DNA of 59,529 bases from Bacteroidota bacterium (GTDB taxonomy: Bacteria; Bacteroidota; Bacteroidia; Bacteroidales; WCHB1-69): the NCBI GenBank assembly GCA_023392945.1, contig JAEWNB010000061.1, positions 1-59,529 of the forward strand. Reading direction: 5' to 3'. Of this stretch, positions 2,312 to 52,523 are shown one piece after another; positions within the stretch are counted from its first letter, which is position 1; the number at the start of each line of letters is the position of its first letter. A model generated the notes under the pieces. The model was not told where the DNA came from. It saw nothing but the letters and a program-made list of their open reading frames with translations, and did not search any database. Both the position numbers and the translations under genes were made by a program.

Positions 2312-3247
2312 CTATTTTATTACAGTAAGGGTTCCGGAGCGAATTTCCTCAATATTGTGAATGGTGTAAAAGAATTGGTAATAATAAATGCCGGCTTCTA
2401 ATCCGTCTGCCCCCCAATCATTCTCATATCCTTGTGTCTGATATAATATTTTTCCATTCTTATTTCGAATAATTAATCTTGACTTGTCACACTGTTCGAT
2501 TCCCGAAATGACAAATTTTTCATTATAACCATCTCCGTTTGGGGTAATAACATTCGGAATTTCTATAATTATGGGATTTGAAATCTCTAACTGTTCATCC
2601 TGATCCATGTTTTGAATGACAGGATCCTCTCTGAGATTTTGAGGCATTGTTGGCTGTGAGGTTAGAGCCGGTTTAACAGAGGAATTTGTTAGGGAAGCTG
2701 TGGGCGAATTTGGCGCTAAAATTGGCTTAACCGGAGACTGATTGTTTGAAGATATATTCCCAATTTTGGTGATTTGATTGGTGCTCTGATTGTTCTGAAT
2801 AGTTATCGGAGTGCTCTCAACTATGGCAGATTTATTATTTGGGGTAATTTTATTATCGGATAAAGAGTTAATAACCGACTTATCTTCAGGAATAGTCACG
2901 AGAGAGTCATTTTCAGCAACTACCGTAATTTCGTCTGAGGGGATAGGTTGTGTTGTGACAGTTGAAGTCGATTGGTTTTTGGAAACATTGATTAGGGTAA
3001 CAACGGCAACGGTAGTAACGGCAATTGAAGAAACGGTAACAGCAGCTGCCTTTACCCAAAAGGCTGCTGATTTCTGCATGATCGAACTCTTGATTCCCGA
3101 GGCTATCTGTTGCCCTGATGCAGCTCCCTGTGAAGCAGGTGAAGAAGGCATCATAACAGATAATTGCTGTTCAATACTTTCCCAGCAACGCCCGGTAGGC
3201 ATCTCTTTTGCATTCTCCACTAAATCTCTTAAATTATGCATCTTCAT
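2312..3247 (-). CDS. Membrane anti-sigma-like protein with S/T/N/P-rich linker and C-terminal T9SS type-B (gliding motility-associated) sorting domain
   Basis: Starts 7 nt after the ECF sigma stop. Short N-terminal cytoplasmic segment, one TM helix (AAFWVKAAAVTVSSIAVTTVAVVTLI), about 140 aa of low-complexity linker, then ITPNGDGYNEKFVI...IRNKNGKILY...DWGADG...GIYYYQF...GTLTVIK, which matches the type-B CTD pattern. Confidence 0.6.
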   Translation of the reverse strand: MKMHNLRDLVENAKEMPTGRCWESIEQQLSVMMPSSPASQGAASGQQIASGIKSSIMQKSAAFWVKAAAVTVSSIAVTTVAVVTLINVSKNQSTSTVTTQPIPSDEITVVAENDSLVTIPEDKSVINSLSDNKITPNNKSAIVESTPITIQNNQSTNQITKIGNISSNNQSPVKPILAPNSPTASLTNSSVKPALTSQPTMPQNLREDPVIQNMDQDEQLEISNPIIIEIPNVITPNGDGYNEKFVISGIEQCDKSRLIIRNKNGKILYQTQGYENDWGADGLEAGIYYYQFFYTIHNIEEIRSGTLTVIK

Positions 3248-3254
3248 CGTTAGC

Positions 3255-3815
3255 TCATTTTATTTTTTTCTTTGACCCGGATCCCAAACGCTCTTCTAAC
3301 CACTGCTTGGCTTTGCAAAACCGCGTTCGGCAAGTGACTTCTGAAATATCTAAGATTTCTGCAATCTGGTTATATGAATATCCGTCAAATGCCCTTAAAT
3401 TCATTACAATACGCAAAAATTCCGGCATTTCCTGAATGATACCAAACAGTTCTTTCTGATTGATATTGGTTTCCATATCATTGAATGTATCCTCAACTTC
3501 ATTGCTGTTTACCTCATCAATAGAAACAGATTGATAATGCTTCGCATTTTTTCTGTAATAAGAAATCGCATTATTTACCATCACTTTTTTTATCCAGTAA
3601 TACAAAGAACTTTCCTCTTTATAAGAATCAAGGCTGAGGAAAACTTTCATAAAACCCTCTACCATGATATCTTCTGCCTCATCTTTACAATTTACATACC
3701 TCATGCAAATACCCAACATAATAGGTGCATATTTTTCGTATAATTTTTTTTGGCTGTCTCTTTGATTTTTTAAACAACCCTCTACGAGTATTTTGTCATC
3801 TTCTTGAGTATTCAC
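3255..3815 (-). CDS. RNA polymerase ECF-type sigma-70 factor
   Basis: 186 aa. Region 2 (DAEDIMVEGFMKVF, YYWIKKVMVNNAISYYRK) and region 4 HTH (YSYNQIAEILDISEVTCRTRFCKAKQWL). Confidence 0.88.
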   Translation of the reverse strand: MNTQEDDKILVEGCLKNQRDSQKKLYEKYAPIMLGICMRYVNCKDEAEDIMVEGFMKVFLSLDSYKEESSLYYWIKKVMVNNAISYYRKNAKHYQSVSIDEVNSNEVEDTFNDMETNINQKELFGIIQEMPEFLRIVMNLRAFDGYSYNQIAEILDISEVTCRTRFCKAKQWLEERLGSGSKKKIK

Positions 3816-3861
3816 AGTTTTTAAGACGCAAATAAAAAATAAATGTTCCTGAAAAAAATAG

Positions 3862-4845
3862 CTATTTGATAGATTTTACAATGGCTTCAACTTCCCGGAG
3901 ATAATCTCGCTTGTTTTCTTCGGGAGCATATACAAAGCCATCAACTGTAATAATATTCTGACCTGATTGGTCTATAAAAGAAAAACTATAGAATGGACCT
4001 CCCATCTTATCACGAACAGATTCCCACAATCCGCGCATTTCTACCCCCTTCCTTGATCCAATTTGTAAGTCGCTGACAAGAGGAAATCCGAATTTCTGAG
4101 TTACTATTGGATAAGCCCCTTTTATGGCACCCGGAATATATTTCTTGGTCATGGTATCACGGGCAGCAATCAAATTTGCTCCGGTCATCTCTTTATAGGG
4201 AGTTTTGTATATCATAATGAATCTGTCATTTCTGGCAGTCCTGAAACGTAACCACAGAAAATCACTTTCTTCTTTGGCTACAATATATTGCTGAGGTACT
4301 GACAGCAGAATTCCAAATTTTGTTTTGATTTTAGTTTCAATATTTTTTTCAATGTCTTTAGCATAAAAAACCTGTATTCTTTTCAAATCATTTTGATATA
4401 GCATTTGAATAATCTTATCCTGATTATTCAAAAATAATGAAAGACAAGAATCAGGATTATTACCCTTAATATAGACATATTCTTGAGGAGATGCCCAAAC
4501 ATTGTGAGAATATGAAATTTGATTCAGATTGAAGTCTTTATTGACTTCAAAACGTACTATATTGCGGTGCCTTTGAAAATTGTGAGTGAATTCTTTATTG
4601 TTAATTTCCAATAGTTCAAACATGGGTTCTATCTGATTGATGGCAGGCTGGGGCTGCATTAATATTTCTTTTACTTTTATTTTGTCACTATCACTCCATG
4701 TATTGTCATCCATAATCAAAACCACTTCCCCCGCTTTTCCTCCGGAGAAGTTGGTTACTTTAAATTTCCCGCCTTTTTTGCTATCACAAGCATTAAAAAG
4801 GATTATTGAACTTATCAAAACGAAAAAAAACAATGACTTTTTCAT
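3862..4845 (-). CDS. Hypothetical lipoprotein (possibly DUF4837-like)
   Basis: Lipoprotein signal MKKSLFFFVLISSIILFNAC. No catalytic motif recognised. The family guess is from memory only. Confidence 0.55.
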   Translation of the reverse strand: MKKSLFFFVLISSIILFNACDSKKGGKFKVTNFSGGKAGEVVLIMDDNTWSDSDKIKVKEILMQPQPAINQIEPMFELLEINNKEFTHNFQRHRNIVRFEVNKDFNLNQISYSHNVWASPQEYVYIKGNNPDSCLSLFLNNQDKIIQMLYQNDLKRIQVFYAKDIEKNIETKIKTKFGILLSVPQQYIVAKEESDFLWLRFRTARNDRFIMIYKTPYKEMTGANLIAARDTMTKKYIPGAIKGAYPIVTQKFGFPLVSDLQIGSRKGVEMRGLWESVRDKMGGPFYSFSFIDQSGQNIITVDGFVYAPEENKRDYLREVEAIVKSIK

Positions 4846-31263: not shown

Positions 31264-34200
31264 TTAAAATGCATTTAAGTCAACAGGACGCATTGCACAG
31301 AAGAATTTTAAGGTTCTTTCTCCAATGCCGGGAGCTTTTACATGGATTATGTATACACCACTTGCAATAGGAATTCCGGCATTATTTTTAAGATCCCAAT
31401 TTACATATGTAGACCCACTATCTCCTTTTGAAATAGTTTTCACCAAAAGTCCACCTACCGTAAAGATAGATATAGAACAATTCTCAGGTAAATTTACAAT
31501 TTTAATATAATTTTCCAATGCAGTCGATTCATACATTGAAAAACCATAATATGGATTTGGAACTACATTTATCTCATCAAGTATACTCTGATGTGTAGAT
31601 TCGGCATTAGTAGTTGGAGCAATATTTTTGGTTGTAAAAGTATACATTGGGAATCCATTATTTTGAGAAGCGTTTGGAGCAGTAGAAGGGTTGTCAAACC
31701 AACGGGAAGAATATCTCATATAGGGACGGGAAACACGAAGTTTGACAACAGCTTGATTTGAGAGCCAGTTATCATTTTGACCGTATGCCGGCATAGGAAT
31801 ACTGGTCCACATAACATTATTAAATAGTTGCATTTTAAACTGATGAATAATGCTATTGCCATATGAAGAATTATCCACAAACTGAGCAAACTTTGCCTTT
31901 AACCATGAACATTCATCATACGGACCACATTCATAATAAGGATAGTCTTTTCCACCAAAAGAGAATGATCCTCCTTGAAAAATTCCATTGCTTTGGAAAG
32001 TTTGATAGCTGTCATTGTAGTTACGTTTTCTGTCAAAACCTCTGGCACTGTAAAAAATAGAATTTGTATTACCGCTACTTCCACAAACATATACAAAGTG
32101 TTTTCCACCCCATACTGGTTCAGTTGTTCCGTCAAAAATACTATTATAAGTTCCTGAATTAATAGGGTAAAGTGTGTCAATGCCTTCATCTTCATTTATG
32201 TAATGAAAATATGCATAAACATCAGTAGGATTAAAGAGCATATCATTTCCATTATTTCTTGTATCAGATGAGTTTTCTGAAAACATAACATTAAGACGTT
32301 CTCCTGTTTCCACATTGATTGCGTAACCCGGGAACCAACCCATACCTTCACCTGTTCCGTCAGGATTTCCATCTTTATCAACTGAAGCATGTTTTCTTGG
32401 CTCATGTTTCAATGCACCACCTTCTGAAAGACTTTCATCATCACAAGCTTCAAGAACAATACAACGTGTCCATTTACTCTTATCGGGAGTAAAAACAATG
32501 TCAACAGAATAAATGTTGGTCATTGTCTGATTAAATCCCGGACAATAAGGAATTGCACTCAACAATGTGAAGTCGTAATAAGGTTCTTCCGGTTGTGTTC
32601 CAGGAATGGTGTCAGGTTTTATATATTTTGCCTGAGGTCCGCCATTATAAGGAGATGACAAAACATAAGGAGCCCAGGTTCCTCCAATAGCGTCTTCAAA
32701 TTGTCCTTTGGGATCTTTCCATCCTCTGGATTGCCAGCTGTCATTAAGTGTACCTGCAGCCATTAATATGAAGAAATCTTCGGTCTTCCATAGAGTATAA
32801 TCATCTCTTACTCCTTCTCCTGCATCTAATCCTTGCCATTGACCGGAGTTTTGTTGTCCTGAACGAATCCAGTTATTAGGAAAATCTCCTTCACCATCTT
32901 CAACTCCGCCCAACCATGGTTTGCTATTGTCTGCATATTCTATGCTGGAACCGATGAAATCAACTTGTGCATATTTTGAAATGTTAACATAATTTAATCC
33001 TGTGGACGTTGATTCTACCCAATCCAGTAATTCTTTTTGATGAATTTTAAATCCATAATTTTTAATAGATATAGAAATACCAAGAGGAAGAATTAATTGT
33101 TCATTAGTCATGTCAATACTCATTTTAGAATTGATTATTCTAATAGGATTGTTATCTTCATCGACTAAATTCATACTGATAAGTTCTTCGTCAGTAACAT
33201 CCAATATTTCAAGTTGCCAATTAGTAGAATCAGTAACATCTTCGGCATTTTCTAAAAATTTAATAGAATAGTCAAAAGGTTTAACTTTTAATGGATCAAT
33301 AACTTTAATACCTAGTGGACCATAATTATTTTTATATTGGATTTCATTAATAGCCCATGTGGGTTGTCCGTAATCGTCGAGCTCTCCACCGGACATGATT
33401 TTATCTCTTGATTCGTCAGTCATGTCAAGAAAATAACCTCCGTTGCCTTGTCCTTCAATTCTGGTAATCATGGGTTGTGTACCATATGCTGAATTTAGAA
33501 CAGTTCCTTCATTTTGAGGAGTAGTTTTGTGAGGTATTCCGGAATATACTTTTATATTCTTTCTACCGGCAAGAAATACTTTTTGCTGTCCTGCTAAGCC
33601 TTCAACACCATTTGTGATAGAATAAGGTGCAAATTCATTATAGGCATACGCAATAACCATATAATAGTATGTTTTATGATTTACTAATTCAGTTGCAGTT
33701 GTGGCAAATTTATCTTCGGTTAGTTTAAGTGAGTGATAAACTCCATTATTGGAACCATTTACCATTTCTGTTGCAACTGAAGTAGAAACAGCATCATTGT
33801 AAACCCAGTTAACTAATTGTCCCACACCGCTTCCGTCAGGTCTGTAATTCTCAATATCACATTGACCAACCAACTTGGCTTTATCAGGATCATCAAGATC
33901 CGTTACACTAATACTTTTACTTTTCAATTGATAAATCATATATCCTTCAAAGCGATATTTTCTGTCATTTGGAATTTTATCAATTTCAGTGACTGATCTT
34001 GTATAGGTAATGATTGTATCATGACCATCTATTGTGGCATGTATTGTATCAGTTACATTATAAGAGGTTTCAACTTCTCTGAATTCAGCAATTTGATTGT
34101 CAAATTCTTCATATTCTTCATTATAGTTATTGCTTAACTTGTCATCATTAGAGATGAAAAGGATAAGTTCGTTTTCAAGTTCGCGAATGGTAATGTCTGG

Positions 34201-35982
34201 TGCATCGGGTCCATCCAGTACTTTAAAGCAGTTTTCAAAAAGCGATTGACATTTATCGTCAGCAATTTTCAAAAGTTCAACAGATGCCCAGGCACCTCCT
34301 TGTGAAGCACGTGCCCATGGAATACCGACAGTAATGTAGTTGACAGAACCGGCTTTCAGTGTGAAAGGTCCGGCAGATTGCATAAAACGACGGTCATAGG
34401 GAGCATTTCCAACATTAGCTTCTGTCCATCCTCCGTCACCGTATTGGGATTCGTTAGGATCAACACCTGCAGTTCCCCAATTACAAGGGTCTGTTGTTCC
34501 GGGGAACATAAAATCACATTCAGGACCGGAGGCTCCGTTCGATGGATGTGCATTTGCACCATATCTCATTCGTTGATTATCTCTCCAAATACCTTGTAAC
34601 ATATTATAATAATCAATAGCTACATCCGGGTCTCCTGTAGGAGAGTTATCATTGTTGTGGTAAACAAATCTTCTCATTCCGAAACGTTCATTGTCAACAA
34701 TGCCATCTCCAAAGTTAACTCCGTTGATTGCCATTTGGTCAACACCAAATTCACTATCCAAATAACGATCACAATATCCGTTTACAATTGCAGAATCTTT
34801 GAAAAATTTAGGATTGTCTCTGCCATCATCGTCGATATAAGGTCCTTGAAAAAAGTCAACTCCAACAGCAGGTGGTTGAGAACTATATGCCCAAGTTTGA
34901 CCTGTACCGTCAACATCGTAGCCGTTGTAACAATACCCCAATCCTCTGGCTACATCACAACCGACATAGTCATCATTGGCATAACCCAAATCAGGGTCTA
35001 CCCATTGAGAGAAAAAAGTATTGGTTAATTCATAAGTGGATCTGTTGATGATTTCATAAGAATAGAAAGTCATGTTGTTTAGATCGTCATTGGTAGCAAA
35101 ACCAAATGCTTGTCCACGAATTTCAAGACCGATAGGTTCTCCTTCTGATTCGGTATGAGCACCTCCTTTATCATTGAAAATCCAATAGAGTGTCTCATCC
35201 CCTTTAAGGACGTGGTCAGCATAGATCATTCCGGTGGTTACACCGGAAGCTTCTTCAGGAGTAATCGGGAGCATTCCTGCAGCAGCTAAAGCCCTATTTG
35301 CCTCAGTCCAGGGACATAAATCATTGTCAAGGTCATAATAAGGATAATCACCCTGATCCGGATTGTATTCACCGTCTTCACCTAAATCCTTAAATGGAGC
35401 CAGATATTTGGATTGTCCTTTAGAAACATCACCATGGGCAGGCCAGTTGGTTATAATGGAAGGAGTGACATATTCAGGATCAATCAAAGTTCCGTTTTCG
35501 TCGAAAGCAGCGATATGAGCTTCTACCTGAGCACGTGTAATTTTAAAATGTTTATCATATTGACTGCAAGTTTCCTGATCTACAGATGCGCCTACAACTG
35601 TAAGTGGACCTGTCCAAAAATCATCTCCTTTTTGGCGAAAACGGACAGCAGCCAATTTTAATTGTTGATTAATATCTCTTCCTCCAATCCATAAGGCAGC
35701 GCAAAACATTGAAGTCATTCCGGAACCAACAGGCACTTCATATTCAGCAACTTCTCTAAACCACATAGTACCGTTGGTTTCCAAATATGCTCTAACATTA
35801 TTAATGGTCAGTTCATTTGAATTGGTAGCGGGAAGGCAGGAGGCATTTGCTTTTTGCTTTTTGGAAATTTGAACACTTCTTGATCTTTCTGCCATCACTG
35901 ACGAGGAAGCAAGGAGTGTGAAAATTCCAACTAAAATTAAAATTTTGTTTATATTCTTCATGTCTCTATTTATTTTTTTCAT
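31264..35982 (-). CDS. Very large (1572 aa) secreted protein with T9SS type-A C-terminal sorting domain, function unknown
   Basis: Signal peptide (ILILVGIFTLLASSSVMA). C-terminal VVPNPY...ISIFTVGGLLVKTI...WDLKNNAGIPIASGVYIIHVKA pattern of the Por secretion tail. No catalytic motif recognised in the other roughly 1450 aa. Confidence 0.8.
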   Translation of the reverse strand: MKKINRDMKNINKILILVGIFTLLASSSVMAERSRSVQISKKQKANASCLPATNSNELTINNVRAYLETNGTMWFREVAEYEVPVGSGMTSMFCAALWIGGRDINQQLKLAAVRFRQKGDDFWTGPLTVVGASVDQETCSQYDKHFKITRAQVEAHIAAFDENGTLIDPEYVTPSIITNWPAHGDVSKGQSKYLAPFKDLGEDGEYNPDQGDYPYYDLDNDLCPWTEANRALAAAGMLPITPEEASGVTTGMIYADHVLKGDETLYWIFNDKGGAHTESEGEPIGLEIRGQAFGFATNDDLNNMTFYSYEIINRSTYELTNTFFSQWVDPDLGYANDDYVGCDVARGLGYCYNGYDVDGTGQTWAYSSQPPAVGVDFFQGPYIDDDGRDNPKFFKDSAIVNGYCDRYLDSEFGVDQMAINGVNFGDGIVDNERFGMRRFVYHNNDNSPTGDPDVAIDYYNMLQGIWRDNQRMRYGANAHPSNGASGPECDFMFPGTTDPCNWGTAGVDPNESQYGDGGWTEANVGNAPYDRRFMQSAGPFTLKAGSVNYITVGIPWARASQGGAWASVELLKIADDKCQSLFENCFKVLDGPDAPDITIRELENELILFISNDDKLSNNYNEEYEEFDNQIAEFREVETSYNVTDTIHATIDGHDTIITYTRSVTEIDKIPNDRKYRFEGYMIYQLKSKSISVTDLDDPDKAKLVGQCDIENYRPDGSGVGQLVNWVYNDAVSTSVATEMVNGSNNGVYHSLKLTEDKFATTATELVNHKTYYYMVIAYAYNEFAPYSITNGVEGLAGQQKVFLAGRKNIKVYSGIPHKTTPQNEGTVLNSAYGTQPMITRIEGQGNGGYFLDMTDESRDKIMSGGELDDYGQPTWAINEIQYKNNYGPLGIKVIDPLKVKPFDYSIKFLENAEDVTDSTNWQLEILDVTDEELISMNLVDEDNNPIRIINSKMSIDMTNEQLILPLGISISIKNYGFKIHQKELLDWVESTSTGLNYVNISKYAQVDFIGSSIEYADNSKPWLGGVEDGEGDFPNNWIRSGQQNSGQWQGLDAGEGVRDDYTLWKTEDFFILMAAGTLNDSWQSRGWKDPKGQFEDAIGGTWAPYVLSSPYNGGPQAKYIKPDTIPGTQPEEPYYDFTLLSAIPYCPGFNQTMTNIYSVDIVFTPDKSKWTRCIVLEACDDESLSEGGALKHEPRKHASVDKDGNPDGTGEGMGWFPGYAINVETGERLNVMFSENSSDTRNNGNDMLFNPTDVYAYFHYINEDEGIDTLYPINSGTYNSIFDGTTEPVWGGKHFVYVCGSSGNTNSIFYSARGFDRKRNYNDSYQTFQSNGIFQGGSFSFGGKDYPYYECGPYDECSWLKAKFAQFVDNSSYGNSIIHQFKMQLFNNVMWTSIPMPAYGQNDNWLSNQAVVKLRVSRPYMRYSSRWFDNPSTAPNASQNNGFPMYTFTTKNIAPTTNAESTHQSILDEINVVPNPYYGFSMYESTALENYIKIVNLPENCSISIFTVGGLLVKTISKGDSGSTYVNWDLKNNAGIPIASGVYIIHVKAPGIGERTLKFFCAMRPVDLNAF

Positions 35983-35997
35983 TATTACTTCATTATA

Positions 35998-38900
35998 TTA
36001 AAAACCAAATTGAAGTCCTAAACTAACCCGTGCAGGTGTGCTGTAGTTATAAGGATTTTGCATTATCATATTGTAATAGTTAATGTAGGAAGGCACATAT
36101 ATCTGTGAATTAATTTGTTGTTGATACTCAGTAGCTGAAAGGTATCCATCATCATCAGGATTTCCTGTGTATGTATATACAGATATAATGTTTTTAAAAT
36201 TAAAAATATTAGTAATATCTAAATAGACAAGCAGATAAGCATTTTTAGAATTTCTTTGTTTTCCTTCTTTGTCTTTAGAATTTAAATTAAACATAAAAGT
36301 TTTATCAATACGTATGTCGCATTGGAAAGTCCATGGTTTATGAGAACCATTTATAGATCCTGAAAGTTGAGAAGCAGTTCCTGTAACATAGGTTGAGTAA
36401 GGTGTACTTGAGCGACTGTATGGGAGACCTGAAGCTGCGGATAATAAAAGAGTTATTCCGGTATTTTCAAGCCATCTGATTTCTTTAACTTTATTAGTCC
36501 CCTTTTTAGAATATTGAGTTTTGGGACCGTTATAGTCGGCACCTCCCTCAAAACGGTAGTCAAGGTTGGCACTAATACGATGTCTTTGGTCAAAAGAAAG
36601 ATTATTTAATGTTCTTAAATTAGGTTGACCGGAAGCAATGATGGCGAGGTTTGAAGAAGCCGAGGATCCGGTTCCTTTTGCAAATTGCAAAGTATAACCT
36701 GCACGAAGGGAAACATTTTTTATTCTTCTCAAATCATAGCTTAAAGAGAAGCCCTGAACTGTTCCAAAGTCAAGATTAGCATATGAGTAATAAGTACTTG
36801 GATATGAACCGGAATAACGGTATGCCTGAATCTGATCACGTTTTTCAGAATAATAAGCAGTAATTCCAATAGCCGATTTATCACTTACTTTTTGAGTAAA
36901 ACTAACCTCATAGTCAATACTTTTTTGAGGTTTAAGGTTAGGATTGTTAACGATATTATTTGCATTAGTCCCGAATTTTTCTATAAATAGATAATCGATA
37001 GGACTTAATTGCAAGTTAGTAGGACGGGAAGTGATAATGTTATAGTGAGCAGTAAATACTGAGTTATCTGATACAGGAAATGAAAATGAAACACGTGGCA
37101 TGATAGACCATTGTGGTTTATAATCTTCAAAAGCACTTGGGTCAACTTTTGAAATTGCGCTCTGTTCAAGAGCATCTACTAGGATTGGACCACCATTAGC
37201 ACCCAACATGTTTTCAGGATCGACTATTTCTTGGCCCTGACTATCATACCAAGTATTTCCGTTTCGATAACCGATAATAGTAGTATTGTCTAAATCAAGT
37301 GTACCATCTTTTTGGTTTACATAAACTACCCAGTCGTCTCCTGCGTTATTAGTAAAATATTGATTCTTCGAATAGCCTTTGCCAATTAAATCCCCAACAG
37401 TGTAAGCTGCACGGAATAAGTAAGGGTCAGACAATACAGATTGATTTGCATCGAAACGGTCAATACGTACACCAATATTGAACAATAAACTCTGAATAGA
37501 GAATTTGTCCTGTAAGTATAAAGCCATATAAATAGGCTCATAAGCTCCAATATTGTAAGTCTTATTACCATTTTCATCTGTAGAGTTGAAAAAGTCGTAA
37601 ATCGTAGTTTTTTTATTGTATTTTTGAGTTCCTGTATAATCATAACCATAATAATTTACCAAAGAACTGCTGAGTCCAACCAATAATTCTTCGGCTGAGA
37701 ACATGCTTAAATCATAAGTTTCAGGAGAAAGATTATCAATGTCAATCCAGTCGCTGCCATTAGGATCCAATCCCAGTGAAGTACGCAAATTTCTATCGAA
37801 GGAAGTTTGCTCATCCAAATTGATTAAATTATTGTAATCAACAGTATCTCCATGAATGATCGGATTGTCAACATCAAGTTCATTGATATGGAAGTTGGCT
37901 TTTTGTCTCATCATTGTCCAAAGTGGTGTTGGATTAACTGAGAAACCACGACTTGTAAGCTTTTCAAATTCATAACCTAATTTAAATTCATGATCTTTTA
38001 GATTAACAGATAAACTTGCTTTTGCTCCTAAAGAAGTTAATTCGGATTTGCTATAACCATCGGTAATTGCACCGGGCATATAAAATAGGCTATAAACACG
38101 GTCAGGCTGGTCTCCGTTTCTCAAAGCTCCGAATTGAGAATATAAAGTCAAGTTATAAGGTACTGTATATCCGTAATAGTCATTAATTATTTCAGGAGTG
38201 AACTGATCAACAAAATTCTGAGTATAGTAAATTAAGTCCGGATTAGAGCTTCCAGTTGCATCAAAAGTAACTAACGAATCATAGATGTTAGTTAATACAT
38301 TCATACCAATATAGTCAATAGAATCGATTTGAATATCCTGTAATTCATAAAATTTAGCTTTTGTAGTTTTAAAATATCCAATATGACCATAATTAAACAA
38401 GTTATCTTTATGTCTTGCATCCTGAGTTAATGAATTAAACTTAGTATAATTAATGTTAATATCATACATGATATTTTTAAAGATTGCGGTATCACTTGGA
38501 TTGGTATAAACTCTATGATTGATTCTGGCATTCAATCGCATGGTAGAGTTTTGTGATTCAGAGTTGTTTTGTGCATTAAATAGTGCAGTTGATCTACCCC
38601 AGTTTTTAGCTTTTAAGAATTCATAAGACCCCCCCACGGATATTTTTACATTATGAGTTTTTCCTGTAAGAAAATCAAGTTTCCCCTGCAAAAGATAATT
38701 CCAGTAACCGGCATGATCTCTTACTCTTCTATTATAGAAAGCATCACTTTCAAGGTAACTGGCGCTTTGATACCATACGCCAAAAGCAATTGGGTCATAA
38801 CGAAGCGGGGTTTTAATCAAATAGTCAATGGTTTCATCGGTAGCACGCCAAGTTCCACCTTGTGCAGGTGAGTTATCGATATCATAAGAAATTTCACCTG

Positions 38901-39717
38901 TAAGTAAAAATCCAATTCTGGCAGGATCCTCGCGTTTTTTTCCTTTGAGGAGAGGCCCTGAAAGAGAAAGAGCTCCAAGGAAATTTCCATAGCCTTCAAG
39001 AGAGCCCCTTATTTCAGCAGCTCCGTGAAAATCTTTGGAAATACCTTTTGTTGTAATCACGGTAAAACTGGTTCCATCACCATATTCAGCAGGAATACCT
39101 CCCTGAATTAATTCGGCTTCTTCAATTGATTGCATGGAAACTCCACCATTACCTCTGACACGCACACCATCAATAATTGTTTGTTGTCCATCGGGACGAT
39201 TTCCGCGGACACTGGCAATGGCTCCATCTTGCATGGTAACACCTTCTACACTGGCAAGTGCAGCAGTAATGGAACGACCGGGGGTTCTTCGTAAGTCCTC
39301 ACCGGTAATAGTCACAGATTTTTTAGTTTCATCTTGATCAAAAACGGGCTTTTCCCATTTAATTTCCACTGCAGCAAGTTCTTGACCACAATTGATGGTC
39401 GCATGTTCCCACATTACAACATCAGGGGAGATGGAAATACCTGTTTTTTTGTATGTGTTTGAACAACCAAGAGGTCCGGTAATTTCAAGATCATATTTTC
39501 CGGCAGAAATACCGAACAGTTGGTATTCTCCCTTTTCATTAGTCATAGCATAATTCACAACTTTATCATCCTGTTTCAAATATACATTTGCATAGGCCAA
39601 GGCCGACTTAGTTTGATCTTTAACAGTTCCTTTTAAAGTACTTTGTTGTGAGTACGCAATTTCGCTGCAAAGGAAGATGATCCCAAGAGCAAATAGTAAC
39701 TTTTTAATCATAGCCAT
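35998..39717 (-). CDS. TonB-dependent-receptor-like outer-membrane barrel with N-terminal CarboxypepD_reg domain (1239 aa), no SusD partner
   Basis: Signal peptide. STLKGTVKD...YANVYL...GEYQL...GKYDLEI (CarboxypepD_reg-like), plug-like segment (ITGEDLRRTPGRSITAALASVEGV...VRGNR), long beta-strand region, terminal aromatic (LQFGF). Confidence 0.78.
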   Translation of the reverse strand: MAMIKKLLFALGIIFLCSEIAYSQQSTLKGTVKDQTKSALAYANVYLKQDDKVVNYAMTNEKGEYQLFGISAGKYDLEITGPLGCSNTYKKTGISISPDVVMWEHATINCGQELAAVEIKWEKPVFDQDETKKSVTITGEDLRRTPGRSITAALASVEGVTMQDGAIASVRGNRPDGQQTIIDGVRVRGNGGVSMQSIEEAELIQGGIPAEYGDGTSFTVITTKGISKDFHGAAEIRGSLEGYGNFLGALSLSGPLLKGKKREDPARIGFLLTGEISYDIDNSPAQGGTWRATDETIDYLIKTPLRYDPIAFGVWYQSASYLESDAFYNRRVRDHAGYWNYLLQGKLDFLTGKTHNVKISVGGSYEFLKAKNWGRSTALFNAQNNSESQNSTMRLNARINHRVYTNPSDTAIFKNIMYDININYTKFNSLTQDARHKDNLFNYGHIGYFKTTKAKFYELQDIQIDSIDYIGMNVLTNIYDSLVTFDATGSSNPDLIYYTQNFVDQFTPEIINDYYGYTVPYNLTLYSQFGALRNGDQPDRVYSLFYMPGAITDGYSKSELTSLGAKASLSVNLKDHEFKLGYEFEKLTSRGFSVNPTPLWTMMRQKANFHINELDVDNPIIHGDTVDYNNLINLDEQTSFDRNLRTSLGLDPNGSDWIDIDNLSPETYDLSMFSAEELLVGLSSSLVNYYGYDYTGTQKYNKKTTIYDFFNSTDENGNKTYNIGAYEPIYMALYLQDKFSIQSLLFNIGVRIDRFDANQSVLSDPYLFRAAYTVGDLIGKGYSKNQYFTNNAGDDWVVYVNQKDGTLDLDNTTIIGYRNGNTWYDSQGQEIVDPENMLGANGGPILVDALEQSAISKVDPSAFEDYKPQWSIMPRVSFSFPVSDNSVFTAHYNIITSRPTNLQLSPIDYLFIEKFGTNANNIVNNPNLKPQKSIDYEVSFTQKVSDKSAIGITAYYSEKRDQIQAYRYSGSYPSTYYSYANLDFGTVQGFSLSYDLRRIKNVSLRAGYTLQFAKGTGSSASSNLAIIASGQPNLRTLNNLSFDQRHRISANLDYRFEGGADYNGPKTQYSKKGTNKVKEIRWLENTGITLLLSAASGLPYSRSSTPYSTYVTGTASQLSGSINGSHKPWTFQCDIRIDKTFMFNLNSKDKEGKQRNSKNAYLLVYLDITNIFNFKNIISVYTYTGNPDDDGYLSATEYQQQINSQIYVPSYINYYNMIMQNPYNYSTPARVSLGLQFGF

Positions 39718-40297: not shown

Positions 40298-40714
40298 ATG
40301 AAAAAAATATTTTTTATATTATTCTGTTGTTGGTGCTTAATTGGTTGTAATGGTTATGAGCACGAGACCATTCCTAATGTTCAAGTAGATTTTACTATAT
40401 ATCCAAATGATGTTGCATACTATAGTTTAAATCATTATGGGGGGCATATGTATTTTACCGGTGGAGTGAGGGGAATAGTAGTTTATAGGCTTGATCCATA
40501 TACTTTTATGGCTTATGATCGTGCATGCCCTTACGACTGGGAAGATAACGATTCCTGGATTTGGGTAGAGGAAAGTGGTATTACACTTATTGACAGTTGT
40601 TGTGGATCCAGATTTAATATATTGGATGGCTCTGTTGTTAATGGTCCTGCAATCTATTCGTTAAAGCATTACAGAACAACCTTTGATGGAGTAAAACTTC
40701 GTGTCTATAACTGA
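40298..40714 (+). CDS. Lipoprotein with degenerate Rieske-like domain (cluster ligand histidines absent)
   Basis: Lipobox CLIGC. RACPYDW and DSCCGSRFNILDGSVVNGPA resemble Rieske boxes CxH and CxCHGSxF, but both His are missing. Confidence 0.5.
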   Translation: MKKIFFILFCCWCLIGCNGYEHETIPNVQVDFTIYPNDVAYYSLNHYGGHMYFTGGVRGIVVYRLDPYTFMAYDRACPYDWEDNDSWIWVEESGITLIDSCCGSRFNILDGSVVNGPAIYSLKHYRTTFDGVKLRVYN

Positions 40715-41517
40715 TGCATCATTTCATATACTAGTTGTACCATTTTGGGACCTGCTGCAGCGGCTTCCTTCAGCACTTCTTCATGAGAGGCCTTTTCAAC
40801 CTTTCCAATAATTCCCAAATCTGTTATTACAGATAATGCAAATACTTCCATCCCCCTGTGTTTGGCAGCAATTGTCTCCGGAACAGTTGACATTCCGACA
40901 GCATCGGCTCCCATATAATGAAACATCCTATATTCTGCAGGGGTTTCAAAACAAGGACCGGTTACGCCCATATAAACACCCTGTTGAAGGTGAATGTTGA
41001 TTTTTTTTCCTGTTTCCAAAGCAATCTTAATCAGTTTCTTAGAATAAGCCTCGCTCATATCGGGAAAGCGGGGACCTTCCTTGTCTTCGTTTGGTCCAAG
41101 TAGAGGATTGTTTCCGAAAAAATTAATATGGTCATTTATTATCATAATATCTCCAATTTTAAATGTGGGATTCATCCCACCCGCAGCATTTGATAATATT
41201 ATTTTTTCTATTCCAAGCTCTTTAAGAATCTGAATAGGAAGAGTAACTTCTTGCATTGAATATCCTTCATAATAATGAAACCTGCCATTCAGAACAATAA
41301 CGTCTACATTGTTTAATTTTCCAAAAATCCAGGTTCCTTTATGTCCTTTAACCGTCGAAACAATAAAATCGGGAATTTCTCGGTATGTGATTTCAATTCT
41401 TTCTTTTATTTTATCAACAAGGCCTCCTAAACCTGACCCTAAAATTATTGCAATTTTAGGGTGATTTGTCATCTTTTCTTTTAAATACTTAACAGTTTTA
41501 TCGATGTTCCTTTTCAT
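40705..41517 (-). CDS. Purine nucleoside phosphorylase (trimeric PunA/PNP type), paralog 1
   Basis: GSGLGGL, GHKGTWIFG, RFHYYEG, SNAAGG, MSTVPE motifs. Confidence 0.9.
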   Translation of the reverse strand: MKRNIDKTVKYLKEKMTNHPKIAIILGSGLGGLVDKIKERIEITYREIPDFIVSTVKGHKGTWIFGKLNNVDVIVLNGRFHYYEGYSMQEVTLPIQILKELGIEKIILSNAAGGMNPTFKIGDIMIINDHINFFGNNPLLGPNEDKEGPRFPDMSEAYSKKLIKIALETGKKINIHLQQGVYMGVTGPCFETPAEYRMFHYMGADAVGMSTVPETIAAKHRGMEVFALSVITDLGIIGKVEKASHEEVLKEAAAAGPKMVQLVYEMMHQL

Positions 41518-41573
41518 ATTATATTATATAGTATATTTTTTTTGTTTGCATAATGACTACATAAACCCAATTG

Positions 41574-42389
41574 CTATGAAATCAAAGGCATCATTTCATA
41601 AATTAGTTTCACCATTTTAGGTCCTGCAATTTCAGCTTCTTTAAGAACCTCTTCTAAAGATACTTTTTCAATTTTTCCGGTAATACCCAAATCAGTTATA
41701 ACAGATAAAGCGAAAACTTTTATATTTCTGTGACGTGCTATTATGGTTTCAGGCACAGTTGACATTCCGACAGCATCAGCACCTAAATAATGAAACATCC
41801 TATATTCTGCCGGAGTTTCAAAGCAGGGACCACTTAATCCCAAATAGACACCCTGTTGAAGATGAATATCTATTTTTTTTGCACAAGATAAAGCAACATT
41901 GATTAATTCTTTTGAATATGCTTCGCTCATATCAGGGAAGCGGGGACCTAAATTGTCATCATTTGGTCCTATCAAAGGATTGGTCCCGAAAAAATTAATA
42001 TGATCGGTAATAATCATGATATCACCAATTTTGAATGCCGGATTCATTCCACCTGCCGCATTTGATAAAATGAGTTTTTCTATTCCAATTTCTTTCATGA
42101 TTTGGATAGGCATTGTTACTTCATTTAAAGTGTAACCCTCGTAATAGTGAAACCTTCCATTGAGGACCACAACATCAACCCCGTTAAATTTTCCAAAAAT
42201 CCAGGTCCCTTTATGACCGCTAACAGTGGAAACAGGGAAATTTGGAATATCTTGATAAGGTATTTCAAGTTCTACTTGTAACTTTTCAACAAGCCCACCC
42301 AGACCTGTTCCCAAAATAATGCCTATTTTGGGTTTTGAAAACATTTTGTCTCTTAGATAATTAATTGACGATTGAATTGGATCTAACAT
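41574..42389 (-). CDS. Purine nucleoside phosphorylase (trimeric PunA/PNP type), paralog 2
   Basis: Same motif set as paralog 1, and by eye a clear majority of residues are identical. Start chosen at MLDPIQSS by alignment with the paralog, which overlaps the lpxK end. Confidence 0.87.
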   Translation of the reverse strand: MLDPIQSSINYLRDKMFSKPKIGIILGTGLGGLVEKLQVELEIPYQDIPNFPVSTVSGHKGTWIFGKFNGVDVVVLNGRFHYYEGYTLNEVTMPIQIMKEIGIEKLILSNAAGGMNPAFKIGDIMIITDHINFFGTNPLIGPNDDNLGPRFPDMSEAYSKELINVALSCAKKIDIHLQQGVYLGLSGPCFETPAEYRMFHYLGADAVGMSTVPETIIARHRNIKVFALSVITDLGITGKIEKVSLEEVLKEAEIAGPKMVKLIYEMMPLIS

Positions 42390-44405: not shown

Positions 44406-44420
44406 TTTTTAATCTACTTT

Positions 44421-45338: not shown

Positions 45339-45355
45339 ATCATTTCAGGTAATTA

Positions 45356-46321: not shown

Positions 46322-46325
46322 GATG

Positions 46326-47528: not shown

Positions 47529-47532
47529 AGTA

Positions 47533-50372: not shown

Positions 50373-52523
50373 ATGAAGCGCTATTACTGTTGTAAGTTAT
50401 TTTTTGTTTTAATTTTCGTTTTATGTTTTGCAAATTTTCTCGCAGCACAAGAAGTTTTAATAGATCTTCCAAATAATATTCAGCTTTTAAAAGAATCAAA
50501 AAATGTTCACGTTAAATCTGCAACAACTAATGCTGAACCCGTTAAACTACCTTTTATTGATGATTTTTCTGATTATAATCTATATCCTAATCCCCTGTTA
50601 TGGGAAGATAAGCAAGGTTTTGTCAATTCCACTTTTCCTATTAATCCACCCTCAATCGGTGTGGTTACATTAGATGCCCTTGATGAGTTCGGGAAAATTT
50701 ATAGCCATGCTTCAGAGTCGCCTTTTCCTGCTGACACTCTTACTTCACATGCCATAAGACTGGATTCAGTTTTTAACCCAAATAGACCAGTTGGGATACA
50801 AGATTCGGTTTATTTTAGTTTTTATTATCAACCGGGAGGTGGAACCTTTTCTCATCCTTATCTTGAATGGGAAAGAATTGGAAATAGACCGGATAACGAA
50901 GATAAACTGATTCTTGAATTCGGATATGCAACCGGAGATACTATTTTTACCGGTTATTCTTATGCTGAATATACTCTAGGTGAAGGAGAATCATATGTGA
51001 TAGGAGATTCTCTTGAAAACCCTTTTATTCTTGGAACTTATTATATTTTTGAATCAAATGCTTTCCCCGGTCAGACCATATTATTACCTTTTGATTCACT
51101 TTTCGGTCCTGAAAAAATTTGGAGTGAGGTTTGGTCATCCAATGGCTGTAAACTGGATGATTGGCTGGATGCAGATTCTTTAAGGTTGACCTATTTTAAA
51201 CAGGTGCTTGTCCCAATTACGGATCCTATATATTTTCGTAATAATTTTCAGTTCAGATTCCGAAATTATGCCAGTCTTGAGCCAAACGGAGTTGCCGGTT
51301 GGGCAAGTAATGTTGACCAATGGCACATTGATTATATTATTCTTAATATTAACAGAACTAAAGATGATATCTATCCCAATGATATTTCTTTTGTCCTTCC
51401 TACTACTACTTTTCTTAATAAATATTATTCAATGCCTTGGAATCAATTTCAAGCATCCGATATGAAAAGTGCTTTTAATAATCAACTTGCAAATATTTCA
51501 AATACAACTAAAAATACAAGCTATTCTTATCATGTTGAAAAAAACGGAAGCCAGACAGTTGGAAATTATGTAAGCAATAATGAAAATGCATATTCTTATT
51601 ACCCAAATGGTTTCCATACCTATCCTATGCATGCCAATCCCTCTGTAAACTTTGCAATTTCGTATGATAATCAGGATAGTGCAACTTTCTTGGTGACTCA
51701 TATTTTTCAAGTTGTAGGAGGAACCGGTGATGCACGTCATCAAAATGACACCTCTTTTTTTGAACAGAAATTTTATAATTATTATGCGTATGATGACGGA
51801 ACTGCTGAGGCAGGCTATTCTCTCCTCTCCACTATGGCTTCTCCTGAAGCTTCATTTGCTGTAAAATTTACATTGGCTCAGCCCGATACATTGCGTTGTG
51901 TAAGAATGTGGTTTAACAGTGTTCTTGAAAATGCCAATTTTGATAATTTTACACTGAAAGTATGGGATGATGATGACGGTTTCCCCGGAAATGAATTATA
52001 TTCTTCTGAATCACTGCTCCCTTCTCAAAGCTCTGATTTTCTTGATTTTGTGAGTTATTTTTTGGAAGAACCTTTGTTTGTTTCAGGTACTTTTTATGTT
52101 GGCTTTTATCAAAATCACGATACACAACTTAATATTGGATTTGACCAGAATAGTGATGCTCGAGGAAACTTTTTTTATAAAACTGCTGATGAATGGGTTG
52201 AATCTTTCTTTAAAGGAGCTCCTATGATTAGACCGGTATTGGGTAAATATTTTAATCCGGTATCTGTTCCAAATATCTCTCCGCTAACTTTTTCGGCTTT
52301 TCCTAATCCAACTTCTCATTATGTTACCATTAAACTAAGTGATGATAGCTATAATTTTGATAAAGTCATTATATACGATATGTATGGAAAACTTTTGAAA
52401 ACCTATTCATGTACCCAAAATACCAATGTCATTGATTTATCTTCTTTTGCACCTGGTATCTATGTTTTGCAATTAGTTAGTGAAAGTAAAATTTTGGGTA
52501 TTTCAAAAATTGTCAAACTATAA
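50373..52523 (+). CDS. Secreted protein with T9SS type-A C-terminal sorting domain, function unknown
   Basis: Signal peptide. C-terminal FPNPTSHYVTIKL...IYDMYGKLL...FAPGIYVLQLVSE...KIVKL. Confidence 0.75.
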   Translation: MKRYYCCKLFFVLIFVLCFANFLAAQEVLIDLPNNIQLLKESKNVHVKSATTNAEPVKLPFIDDFSDYNLYPNPLLWEDKQGFVNSTFPINPPSIGVVTLDALDEFGKIYSHASESPFPADTLTSHAIRLDSVFNPNRPVGIQDSVYFSFYYQPGGGTFSHPYLEWERIGNRPDNEDKLILEFGYATGDTIFTGYSYAEYTLGEGESYVIGDSLENPFILGTYYIFESNAFPGQTILLPFDSLFGPEKIWSEVWSSNGCKLDDWLDADSLRLTYFKQVLVPITDPIYFRNNFQFRFRNYASLEPNGVAGWASNVDQWHIDYIILNINRTKDDIYPNDISFVLPTTTFLNKYYSMPWNQFQASDMKSAFNNQLANISNTTKNTSYSYHVEKNGSQTVGNYVSNNENAYSYYPNGFHTYPMHANPSVNFAISYDNQDSATFLVTHIFQVVGGTGDARHQNDTSFFEQKFYNYYAYDDGTAEAGYSLLSTMASPEASFAVKFTLAQPDTLRCVRMWFNSVLENANFDNFTLKVWDDDDGFPGNELYSSESLLPSQSSDFLDFVSYFLEEPLFVSGTFYVGFYQNHDTQLNIGFDQNSDARGNFFYKTADEWVESFFKGAPMIRPVLGKYFNPVSVPNISPLTFSAFPNPTSHYVTIKLSDDSYNFDKVIIYDMYGKLLKTYSCTQNTNVIDLSSFAPGIYVLQLVSESKILGISKIVKL

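Follow-up and report, generated by a model that had tools for sequence, protein, structure and literature searches.

A type-B T9SS sorting domain on a putative inner-membrane anti-sigma factor encoded next to an ECF sigma gene in uncultured Bacteroidota

How Bacteroidota sense the state of their T9SS is only partly understood, and to our knowledge the only studied route is PorA-PorXY-SigP, in Porphyromonas gingivalis alone. Inner-membrane-tethered PorA still signals, and the proposed logic is that the working of the T9SS is reported by a C-terminal sorting domain (CTD) that stays behind in the periplasm (PMC7712824, PMC12152298); periplasmic signalling by the PorA CTD does not require engagement of the T9SS (PMC12152298). 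Envelope-spanning anti-sigma factors of Bacteroidota, the Dma family, were described in 2024, and in Dma1 an N-terminal sigma-binding region and a transmembrane (TM) helix are connected through a long disordered linker to an outer-membrane domain (PMC10927553). PorP/SprF-like proteins are the binding partners of type-B CTDs, and the proteins that carry such CTDs remain on the cell surface attached to PorP-like proteins (PMC9143113). Orphan type-B CTDs work through unlinked shuttles, and in SprB each of the conserved type-B CTD motifs is needed for secretion (PMC12618676).

We analysed a 59,529-nt stretch of Bacteroidota DNA, referred to throughout as the window, that encodes an ECF sigma factor and a CTD protein side by side (Table 1). 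The first-pass annotation had placed a 311-aa ORF 7 nt after a 186-aa ECF sigma gene, and both ORFs and the gap are confirmed in the sequence, in which the TGA stop codon of the sigma gene is followed by 7 nt (gctaacg) and the ATG of the 311-aa ORF. The 186-aa protein is an ECF (group IV) sigma factor: it has sigma-2 and sigma-4 domains only (Pfam Sigma70_r2, 51.9 bits; Sigma70_r4_2, 43.1 bits), it falls in the size range of ~180-200 aa, and it scores 95.2 bits against NCBIfam TIGR02937, for which the cut-off is 42.9. The closest solved structure is that of E. coli sigma-E (1or7, E 1.8e-19), and full-length structure matches were obtained to 6in7 and 8z6g, both of the RpoE/AlgU type.

Table 1. 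Features of the sigma/CTD-protein locus, in window coordinates
Feature	Position	Strand	Basis or remark
ECF (group IV) sigma gene, RpoE-like, 186 aa	3255..3815	minus	GTG start; Sigma70_r2 and Sigma70_r4_2 matches
Putative anti-sigma gene, 311 aa, single-pass, type-B T9SS CTD at end	2312..3247 (including stop)	minus	
Conserved cytoplasmic N-terminal module, residues 1-31	3155..3247	minus	Presumed sigma-binding part
Single TM helix, ~residues 61-88, predicted signal-anchor, N-in	2984..3067	minus	Kyte-Doolittle maximum
Predicted disordered periplasmic tether, residues 89-227	2567..2983	minus	AF2 pLDDT and composition
Type-B T9SS C-terminal sorting domain (CHU_C / TIGR04131), residues 228-311	2315..2566	minus	HMM, AF2, Foldseek
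Predicted ECF-type promoter of the sigma/anti-sigma operon	3822..3852	minus	Direct reading and PWM
DUF4837 lipoprotein gene, frequent upstream neighbour, outside the ECF promoter	3862..4845	minus	PF16125, 279.7 bits

The sigma gene is preceded by a predicted autoregulatory ECF promoter of the AAC (-35) / CGT (-10) type, with GGAAC at 3849..3845, a 16-nt spacer and CGTC at 3828..3825. Since the promoter ends 9 nt from the GTG start, the mRNA would be almost without a leader. This promoter is the top PWM match of the whole window (score 19.9), and across the family the consensus (T)G(T/G/C)AAC-N16/17-CG(T/A)C lies directly upstream of the sigma gene. Of 47 non-redundant related loci, 42 have the motif at this position, with only ~5 other matches in 445 kb, and it is also found at a locus without a DUF4837 neighbour (L011). 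PWM scans gave no second site above shuffled background in the window, and around the 47 loci (±5 kb) no further target recurred; the regulon is therefore not tied to the T9SS by promoter sites.

The 311-aa protein begins with a conserved module (consensus IKDxLxNxxExPSxxCWxxIxxxL) in which a 72-sequence family alignment shows no variation at P17 and W22 and 96% conservation of L29. Mean pairwise identity among the 72 sequences is 41% in this module, as against 14-18% in the neighbouring regions. AF2 models the module as two short helices (residues 5-11 and 19-30) with low confidence (pLDDT ~53). An HxxxCxxC motif is absent from it, and one clade has Val in place of the single Cys21. The first-pass annotation had proposed a search of the 311-aa protein with anti-sigma HMMs, and this came back empty: no anti-sigma family of Pfam or NCBIfam matched at E-values up to 1, and RseA_N, zf-HC2 and FecR domains were not detected with either collection. 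A profile search with the N-terminal module and TM helix together returned two fragments only and missed known members.

Topology and signal peptides were called across the family with a Kyte-Doolittle hydropathy script and a charge count. The strongest 19-residue hydrophobic window of the 311-aa protein starts at residue 68 (Kyte-Doolittle mean 2.15), and no second hydrophobic segment is seen by hydropathy. The median start of the TM window in the family is residue 58, and the script found no hydrophobic segment within the first 30 residues in any of the 72 members. On the N side of the TM helix the 15 flanking residues carry a family net charge of +2.47, as compared with -0.71 for those on the C side; in 68 of the 72 the N-side flank has the more positive charge, so that the positive-inside rule predicts an N-in, C-out topology. 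Hydropathy and the family alignment agree with the initial view of one TM helix after ~60 cytoplasmic residues and no cleavable signal peptide, and by this measure the protein appears to lack the N-terminal Sec signal peptide that marks T9SS cargo.

The predicted tether is ~140 aa long here, 143 aa by the hydropathy script, is rich in T, S, P, E, N and Q across the family, and belongs to a stretch (residues 32-201) in which the AF2 pLDDT is <50. Its pairwise identity in the family is 14%, yet its length stays within 115-164 aa (median 147). The C-terminus that follows is a type-B T9SS sorting domain by curated cut-offs, by its extreme C-terminal position and by its predicted beta-sandwich fold. 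CHU_C (PF13585) matches residues 228-307 over model positions 1-84 of 86 with 59.3 bits (cut-off 27, E 4e-16), TIGR04131 matches with 37.2 bits (cut-off 35), and the AF2 pLDDT of the domain is ~90. The best Foldseek match in the PDB is 8glk_D, the NucA CTD in the SprA translocon complex (TMt 0.65), with further matches to PorZ (5m11) and the mirolase CTD (8qb1); E-values of the top matches are only 3e-3 to 6e-2. Pairwise identity of the CTD is 52% in the 72-member family, and the PNxxTPNGDGxND, YxNxW and GxYxY blocks are invariant. Both parts had been anticipated: the S/T/N/P/Q-rich linker of ~140 aa is found as an S/T/P-rich tether of that length, and the assignment of the final ~85 aa to the type-B CTDs is upheld by TIGR04131 and PF13585, both above their curated cut-offs.

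The full-length architecture aligns end to end in ~63 clusters at 90% identity and in ~180 clusters at 50% identity; the pairing of sigma factor and CTD protein is far beyond chance. An intact CTD protein follows the sigma factor in 56 of the 57 DUF4837-linked sigma loci for which enough sequence is available, and in the one exception (L169) it is split by a frameshift. Apparent cases of a sigma factor without a CTD protein (L094, L132, L167/168) were rejected as ORF-calling artefacts. Distant members, at 26-32% identity, always lie directly after an ECF sigma gene while the flanking genes vary, and the junction between the two genes consists across relatives of gaps of a few nt or, often, of overlapping stop and start codons. 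The same plan of N-terminal motif, TM helix and CTD, likewise placed after an ECF sigma gene, is found in divergent branches with proteins of 450 aa (P0064), 428 aa (L033) and 280 aa (P0071). When a genome collection was scanned with the full-length alignment, generic TPNGDGxN[DE] matches dominated, and L011 was the sole true member among the matches listed; the 79 other loci represent a sample of ordinary type-B cargo. Such cargo in the 80-locus sample has N-terminal signal peptides, and a sigma neighbour is present at only 2 of the 80 type-B CTD genome loci, both of which have the sigma/TM/CTD plan. Carriers of the family are uncultured Bacteroidota, every member found being from a MAG or metagenome contig. 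The genes are currently annotated only as 'gliding motility-associated C-terminal domain-containing protein'.

The structural reading of the locus as an inner-membrane-tethered protein without a signal peptide, with a genuine type-B CTD and coupled to an ECF sigma factor, holds, and it is strengthened by the conserved N-terminal module, the positive-inside rule, the strict sigma adjacency and the predicted autoregulatory promoter. Two of the three refuting conditions named in the first-pass annotation, a cleavable signal peptide and a C-terminus that fails the type-B model, are not borne out. A gene directly 3' of a sigma gene whose product has a predicted single-pass, N-in topology is arranged as an anti-sigma gene would be, and genomic context points to a putative anti-sigma role for the 311-aa protein. 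A T9SS in the source organism is indicated by a type-A CTD cargo encoded in the window. As had been noted at the outset, no PorP/SprF-like gene is adjacent; indeed, none was found among the scanned window ORFs of at least 150 aa, and the loci examined have neither a PorP/SprF-like gene nor a T9SS component gene linked to the pair. The gene after the P0064-type protein was considered as PorP/SprF-like and rejected, as it matches PagL. The missing PorP/SprF neighbour carries little weight because orphan type-B CTDs use unlinked shuttles (PMC12618676).

We lean, with moderate confidence, towards an autoregulated sigma/anti-sigma operon in which the CTD of the 311-aa protein docks on the outer-membrane T9SS and a change in this contact frees the sigma factor. 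The conserved N-terminal module of ~30 residues would hold the sigma factor at the inner membrane, and the periplasmic part, with no folded sensor except the CTD, would form a disordered tether long enough to cross the periplasm. The CTD would dock on a PorP/SprF-type shuttle or on the SprA/Sov translocon, and the protein would span from inner to outer membrane in the manner of the Dma anti-sigma factors. With the T9SS absent, blocked, saturated or pulling, the CTD contact would change and leave the tether open to periplasmic proteases, and regulated intramembrane proteolysis would then release free sigma factor for transcription of its own operon and regulon. The design probably couples gene expression to the state of the secretion machine or of the outer membrane, and the CTD may, we infer, serve as a 'bait' that reports T9SS occupancy to the sigma factor. 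Several points count against docking on the T9SS. No anti-sigma domain model matches, and the N-terminal AF2 confidence is only ~53; a linked PorP/SprF or T9SS gene and a second promoter site are both lacking; and signalling by the PorA CTD can proceed independently of the T9SS components (PMC12152298). Moreover, an inner-membrane-anchored polypeptide cannot complete export, so that stable engagement could jam the translocon. We consider it fairly unlikely that the PMF-driven T9SS pulls the tethered CTD or threads it to the surface, with secretion gating sigma release mechanically or proteolytically as a FlgM-like checkpoint; were this true, a single polypeptide would connect the cytoplasm with the outer membrane or cell surface.

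There is a small but real probability that the two genes are a sigma/anti-sigma pair in which the CTD is a small Ig-like periplasmic binding or sensor domain that never meets the T9SS, its likeness to a sorting signal reflecting ancestry. The want of any PorP/SprF or T9SS gene linked to the pair speaks for such a domain, whose candidate partners would be a periplasmic protease, a chaperone or the DUF4837 lipoprotein. DUF4837, for which neither a sequence relative in the PDB nor a mention in the searched literature was found, is a frequent neighbour, and its predicted fold weakly resembles those of the envelope lipoproteins DcrB and LpqN. As a partner, however, it is weakened by its distribution: it precedes the sigma gene in 56 loci, but occurs by itself in 18 and is missing from L011, L007, L009 and L033. 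The sensor domain itself sits poorly with the invariance of all type-B blocks in the 72 members and their presence in the divergent branches, given that such motifs are each required for secretion in SprB (PMC12618676), and a tether kept at 115-164 residues would be hard to explain with an inner-membrane partner.

Docking of the CTD on the T9SS, which we prefer, has also to be weighed against delivery by the T9SS. It is improbable, in our estimate, that the 311-aa protein is a surface protein with an uncleaved or late-cleaved signal-anchor, the tether of which is cut and the C-terminal part exported onto a PorP-like anchor, with the sigma factor merely co-expressed or its release a by-product of maturation. 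A semi-conserved D-P-V motif, found as D[PN][VI] in 51 of 72 members, lies in the tether 22-23 residues before the CTD and, together with P225, at a fixed distance from it, where it could mark a processing site; retention of type-B CTD proteins on PorP-like proteins at the surface (PMC9143113) and the occurrence of Dma1 C-terminal fragments in outer-membrane vesicles (PMC10927553) would fit with this. The exported part would, however, comprise little more than linker and CTD, with no functional passenger domain, the N-terminal module, as the second most conserved region of the protein, would make no sense for a mere export anchor, and the sigma linkage is strict. That the protein is ordinary T9SS cargo with its start called too far upstream, the true start being M57 and the hydrophobic stretch a Sec signal peptide, is suggested by Met57-Gln-Lys-Ser before this stretch in this one sequence, but we rejected such a mis-called start as highly improbable from the N-terminal conservation and hydropathy across the family: residues 1-31 show protein-level conservation in 72 sequences, without change at P17 and W22; homologues do not share the internal Met; the junction with the sigma gene, a 7-nt gap or a stop/start overlap, recurs; and the stretch of ~28 residues would make a long signal peptide and is followed by no consistent A-x-A motif in the alignment.

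The sigma/tethered-CTD design is widespread but undescribed: no description of an architecture that combines a type-B CTD with an anti-sigma factor was found in the searchable literature, and the main text of the ECF reclassification paper makes no mention of it. The family offers a second and physically simpler candidate route for sensing of the T9SS, in which a sorting signal would be wired straight to a sigma factor through one polypeptide, and it is open to clear, cheap genetic tests.

Several known systems share parts of this design. FlgM/sigma-28 resembles it in concept, in that an anti-sigma factor carries the export signal of the machine on which it could report, but FlgM is soluble and fully secreted, whereas the 311-aa protein is membrane-anchored and has no sequence or structural relation to it. 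With RseA/RpoE the locus shares an RpoE-like sigma factor, an autoregulated promoter of the AAC/CGT type and a downstream gene for a single-pass, N-in anti-sigma factor, and release of the sigma factor by regulated proteolysis would be expected in both; with FecR it shares a periplasmic end proposed to contact an outer-membrane machine. Unlike in either, there is here no RseA_N, zf-HC2 or FecR domain and no folded periplasmic sensor but the CTD, and in place of unfolded OMPs or a TonB-dependent transducer the partner would be a secretion system. In the PorA-PorY-PorX-SigP pathway of P. gingivalis, too, a T9SS CTD has a regulatory role, and its signal ends at an ECF sigma factor (PMC7712824, PMC12152298). 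The CTD of PorA, however, is of type A and sits on normal Sec-exported cargo, and its signal is relayed by a histidine kinase and response regulator and not by an anti-sigma factor, whereas here the CTD and the presumed sigma-sequestering module are one polypeptide.

Dma appears to be the closer architectural precedent than the 'bait' picture. Both families have an adjacent ECF sigma gene, are found in Bacteroidota only and have proteolytic control proposed for them (PMC10927553), and both combine a short cytoplasmic N-terminus without a classical anti-sigma domain, one TM helix, a long disordered periplasmic linker and a C-terminal module that belongs at the outer membrane. In Dma this module is an 8-stranded OMP_b-brl_2 barrel, for which the insertion route is unknown, whereas here it is a CHU_C domain of ~85 residues, and attachment to the outer membrane would need the T9SS and a PorP/SprF-type partner. 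The Dma sigma factors are ECF21, while the sigma factor here is placed only by its nearest solved relative, RpoE. Since its C-terminus is CHU_C with no match to an OMP barrel, the 311-aa protein is Dma-like in its working at most and not a member of that family. The family described here would extend the envelope-spanning anti-sigma principle of Dma to another distal module, and together the two suggest a general tether-and-distal-module design in Bacteroidota.

The periplasmic part of the putative anti-sigma factor encoded beside the ECF sigma gene comprises, we conclude, nothing beyond a tether of periplasmic length and a type-B sorting domain (CTD) of the T9SS. Direct reading of the sequence gave exactly the coordinates and junction claimed in the first-pass annotation, a 186-aa ECF sigma factor followed after 7 nt by a 311-aa protein. 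The sigma factor contains sigma-2 and sigma-4 domains (TIGR02937, 95.2 bits), its closest solved structure is E. coli sigma-E (1or7, E 1.8e-19), with full-length matches to 6in7 and 8z6g, and we conclude that it is of the RpoE-like ECF type. The C-terminus of the 311-aa protein, previously assigned as a type-B CTD by pattern, passes both curated cut-offs: CHU_C (PF13585) scores 59.3 bits over residues 228-307, nearly the entire model (cut-off 27), and TIGR04131 scores 37.2 bits (cut-off 35). No anti-sigma domain and no family besides the CTD was detected in this protein by domain-model search.

Features of the window, segments of the 311-aa protein and DUF4837 loci without the sigma pair
Feature	Position	Strand	Details
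311-aa ORF	2312..3247	-	ATG start, 7 nt (gctaacg) after sigma TGA
N-terminal module	residues 1-31		41% mean pairwise identity; P17, W22 invariant, L29 96%
Spacer	residues 32-60		18% mean pairwise identity
Hydrophobic helix	residues 61-88		23% mean pairwise identity
Linker	residues 89-204		14% mean pairwise identity
Pre-CTD segment	residues 205-227		31% mean pairwise identity
CTD	residues 228-311		52% mean pairwise identity
D-P-V motif to CTD	2567-2650	-	P225 90% conserved
ECF sigma gene	3255..3815	-	186 aa, GTG start, TGA stop
-10 CGTC to sigma GTG	3813-3828	-	start 9 nt after CGTC
Candidate ECF promoter	GGAAC 3849..3845, CGTC 3828..3825	-	16 nt between elements; in 46-nt DUF4837-sigma gap
DUF4837 lipoprotein	3862-4845	-	lipobox, invariant Cys20
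1572-aa ORF	31264-35982	-	weak FlgD_ig-like match, residues 1502-1550
1239-aa TonB-dependent-receptor-like protein	35998-39717	-	directly upstream of 1572-aa ORF
Three tandem paralogue pairs	40705-48528	-	two PNP_UDP_1 phosphorylases, two M23 peptidases, two glucosaminidase+LysM proteins
716-aa protein	50373..52523	+	type-A sorting domain (Por_Secre_tail, 43.5 bits)
DUF4837-alone loci (18)			L096, L106, L108, L109, L112-L114, L116, L117, L124, L126, L134, L148, L149, L152-L154, L162

The 311-aa protein belongs to a coherent family. In a 5.8-billion-protein collection, ~63 clusters of 300-325 aa align with it over their full length at 26-89% identity, and an exhaustive HMMER search of 50%-identity representatives returned 180 proteins at E <= 1e-30, nearly all of them 290-350 aa and aligned end to end; for comparison, type-B CTDs of one sort or another are recognisable in 56,972 representatives of the same set. 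All members found come from MAGs or metagenome contigs, none from an isolate genome, and public databases annotate them as 'gliding motility-associated C-terminal domain-containing protein'. An alignment of 72 unique sequences is conserved at both ends and variable in the middle.

Our own hydropathy and charge statistics over these 72 members support the proposed topology of about 60 cytoplasmic residues and one TM helix without a cleavable signal peptide. The first 30 residues contain no hydrophobic segment in any member (highest 19-residue Kyte-Doolittle mean 0.79), while each member has one strong segment (median start residue 58, median score 2.2), after which no second segment of comparable Kyte-Doolittle hydrophobicity occurs in any of the 72. 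Net charge averages +2.47 in the 15 residues before the helix and -0.71 in the 15 after it, with the N side the more positively charged in 68 of the 72 sequences, the pattern characteristic of a signal-anchor oriented N-in, C-out. A mis-called start, with Met57 opening a 'signal peptide', was excluded, because the 31-residue stretch upstream shows protein-level conservation, the Met itself varies among homologues and the tight sigma junction recurs across loci. The N-terminus is modelled by AF2 as two short helices at low confidence.

Between helix and CTD lies a tether rich in T, S, P, E, N and Q, a composition that bears out the S/T/N/P/Q-rich linker described earlier, and it is predicted to be disordered (AF2 pLDDT <50 for residues 32-201). 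Its length is held within 115-164 residues (median 147) across the 72 members and its sequence is essentially unconserved, the pattern a spacer would show; by our estimate, a chain of this length could span the periplasm. In 51 of 72 members a D-P-V motif sits 22-23 residues ahead of the CTD, where it may mark a processing site or already form the CTD's first element.

The CTD itself is modelled confidently (pLDDT ~90). Its best PDB matches, with modest E-values, are T9SS sorting domains: the CTD of NucA caught within the SprA translocon complex (8glk_D, TMt 0.65), PorZ (5m11) and the CTD of mirolase (8qb1). The type-A domain is the only one recognised in the 716-aa protein, and from its presence we infer a T9SS in this organism. 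Elsewhere in the window, the 1572-aa ORF has no Pfam family apart from its FlgD_ig-like C-terminus, possibly a sorting domain that has diverged.

The candidate promoter upstream of the sigma gene is of the classic ECF type, with AAC at -35 and CGT at -10. At related loci, (T)G(T/G/C)AAC-N16/17-CG(T/A)C lies mostly 8-10 nt before the sigma start; a PWM scan placed it there in 42 of 47 non-redundant loci, with only ~5 other matches in 445 kb, and no other site in the window rose above shuffled background. An ECF-type motif before the pair argues for positive autoregulation, and the short spacing implies that the mRNA has little or no leader and is translated from a non-AUG codon, which would be unusual.

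DUF4837 lies outside this predicted promoter. Related loci L001, L003 and L005 (~30% identity) keep the order DUF4837, ECF sigma, CTD protein within differing flanks. A DUF4837 profile scan of metagenome contigs yielded 80 loci, and counted jointly with the earlier loci, 56 carry DUF4837, sigma and an intact CTD protein. At 18 loci DUF4837 stands without either gene despite at least 1.8 kb of following sequence; the remainder end too soon after DUF4837 to score, and four apparent 'sigma only' loci were artefacts of ORF calling. At least two of the 18 encode proteins with type-A-like sorting-domain C-termini. Conversely, L011 (a Bacteroidota MAG, 26% identity) has sigma, CTD protein and the promoter motif without DUF4837. 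At the end of another contig, the C-terminal region 4 of an ECF sigma comes before P0346 (370 aa). The survey thus identifies the sigma and CTD-protein pair as the core unit, the pair being no obligatory neighbour of DUF4837, and DUF4837 is a frequent neighbour rather than a component. At one further locus (L169:1778-2701) a frameshift divides the CTD-protein gene into an N-terminal fragment of 139 aa, deposited as P0219, and a CTD fragment of 133 aa; this reflects either a pseudogene or an error in sequencing.

DUF4837 is itself conserved at 50-60% identity, far above the neighbouring putative anti-sigma factor. From its confident AF2 model (pLDDT 85) and weak fold matches (E 5e-5 to 8e-3) to BT_1490 (3hlz), LpqN, MTC28, Mog1, DcrB and SciW/Eag chaperones, we read it as two PsbP/Mog1/DcrB-like domains; we found no paper mentioning the family. 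Farther along the window, three tandem paralogue pairs adjoin lpxK, phoH and ddl in a cell-wall gene neighbourhood.

The architecture also appears in divergent branches. In each of the nearest non-family CTD matches, P0064 (450 aa), P0065 (457 aa), P0066 (323 aa) and P0071 (280 aa), the N-terminus bears a P-x-x-x-(W/F)-x-x-(I/L/M) motif, a helix lies around residues 50-75 and a signal peptide is lacking. ECF sigma genes precede P0064, P0071 and a similar 428-aa protein at L033. Type-A CTD cargoes, a 4378-aa adhesin-like protein (L007:1-5199) and an M1 peptidase (L009:2985-5315), lie just upstream of sigma in the P0064 and P0071 loci, which hints at a local link of these sigma pairs to T9SS substrates. 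Among 80 genome loci retrieved by a generic type-B pattern, only L011 and L033 have a sigma neighbour, and the remaining complete small CTD proteins start with ordinary signal peptides. The pairing of an ECF sigma with an N-in single-pass type-B CTD protein therefore recurs, rarely, in ~0.3% of type-B CTD clusters.

Strict adjacency to sigma, frequent stop/start overlap, N-in topology, the conserved cytoplasmic module and the autoregulated promoter make it highly probable that the 311-aa protein is an anti-sigma factor. We lean only slightly towards the full model, in which its CTD would dock on the T9SS or a shuttle at the outer membrane and the state of that contact would control tether proteolysis and hence sigma release, with the engaged state either on or off. 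Docking is the simplest mechanistic reading because PorP/SprF-like outer-membrane shuttles are bound by type-B CTDs, which then stay attached to them (PMC9143113, PMC12618676). The main rival, that the CTD is only a periplasmic binding or sensor domain that never meets the T9SS, draws on the P. gingivalis PorA system, where a CTD can carry regulatory information to an ECF sigma, a CTD protein tethered at the inner membrane can still signal, and this kind of signalling can proceed without the T9SS itself (PMC12152298). We consider it unlikely, since the full type-B blocks (PNxxTPNGDGxND, YxNxW, GxYxY and a terminal G-x-hydrophobic strand) are invariant across all 72 members, and in SprB each of five conserved type-B motifs is needed for secretion (PMC12618676); the family's blocks, typical of type-B CTDs, may coincide with those five.

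An anti-sigma factor with a T9SS CTD is undescribed in the full-text literature searched, which excludes most subscription journals, so a prior mention may exist. The nearest published architecture is that of the Dma family of Bacteroidota, which shares the plan of the 311-aa family: Dma1 uses a short N-terminal region to bind its sigma, passes the inner membrane a single time, continues as a long disordered periplasmic region that ends in an outer-membrane beta-barrel, and is proteolytically processed (PMC10927553). The distal module differs, being a beta-barrel in Dma1 but a type-B CTD here, and we class the 311-aa family with the known envelope-spanning or cell-surface-signalling anti-sigma factors, with a T9SS CTD as its new distal module.
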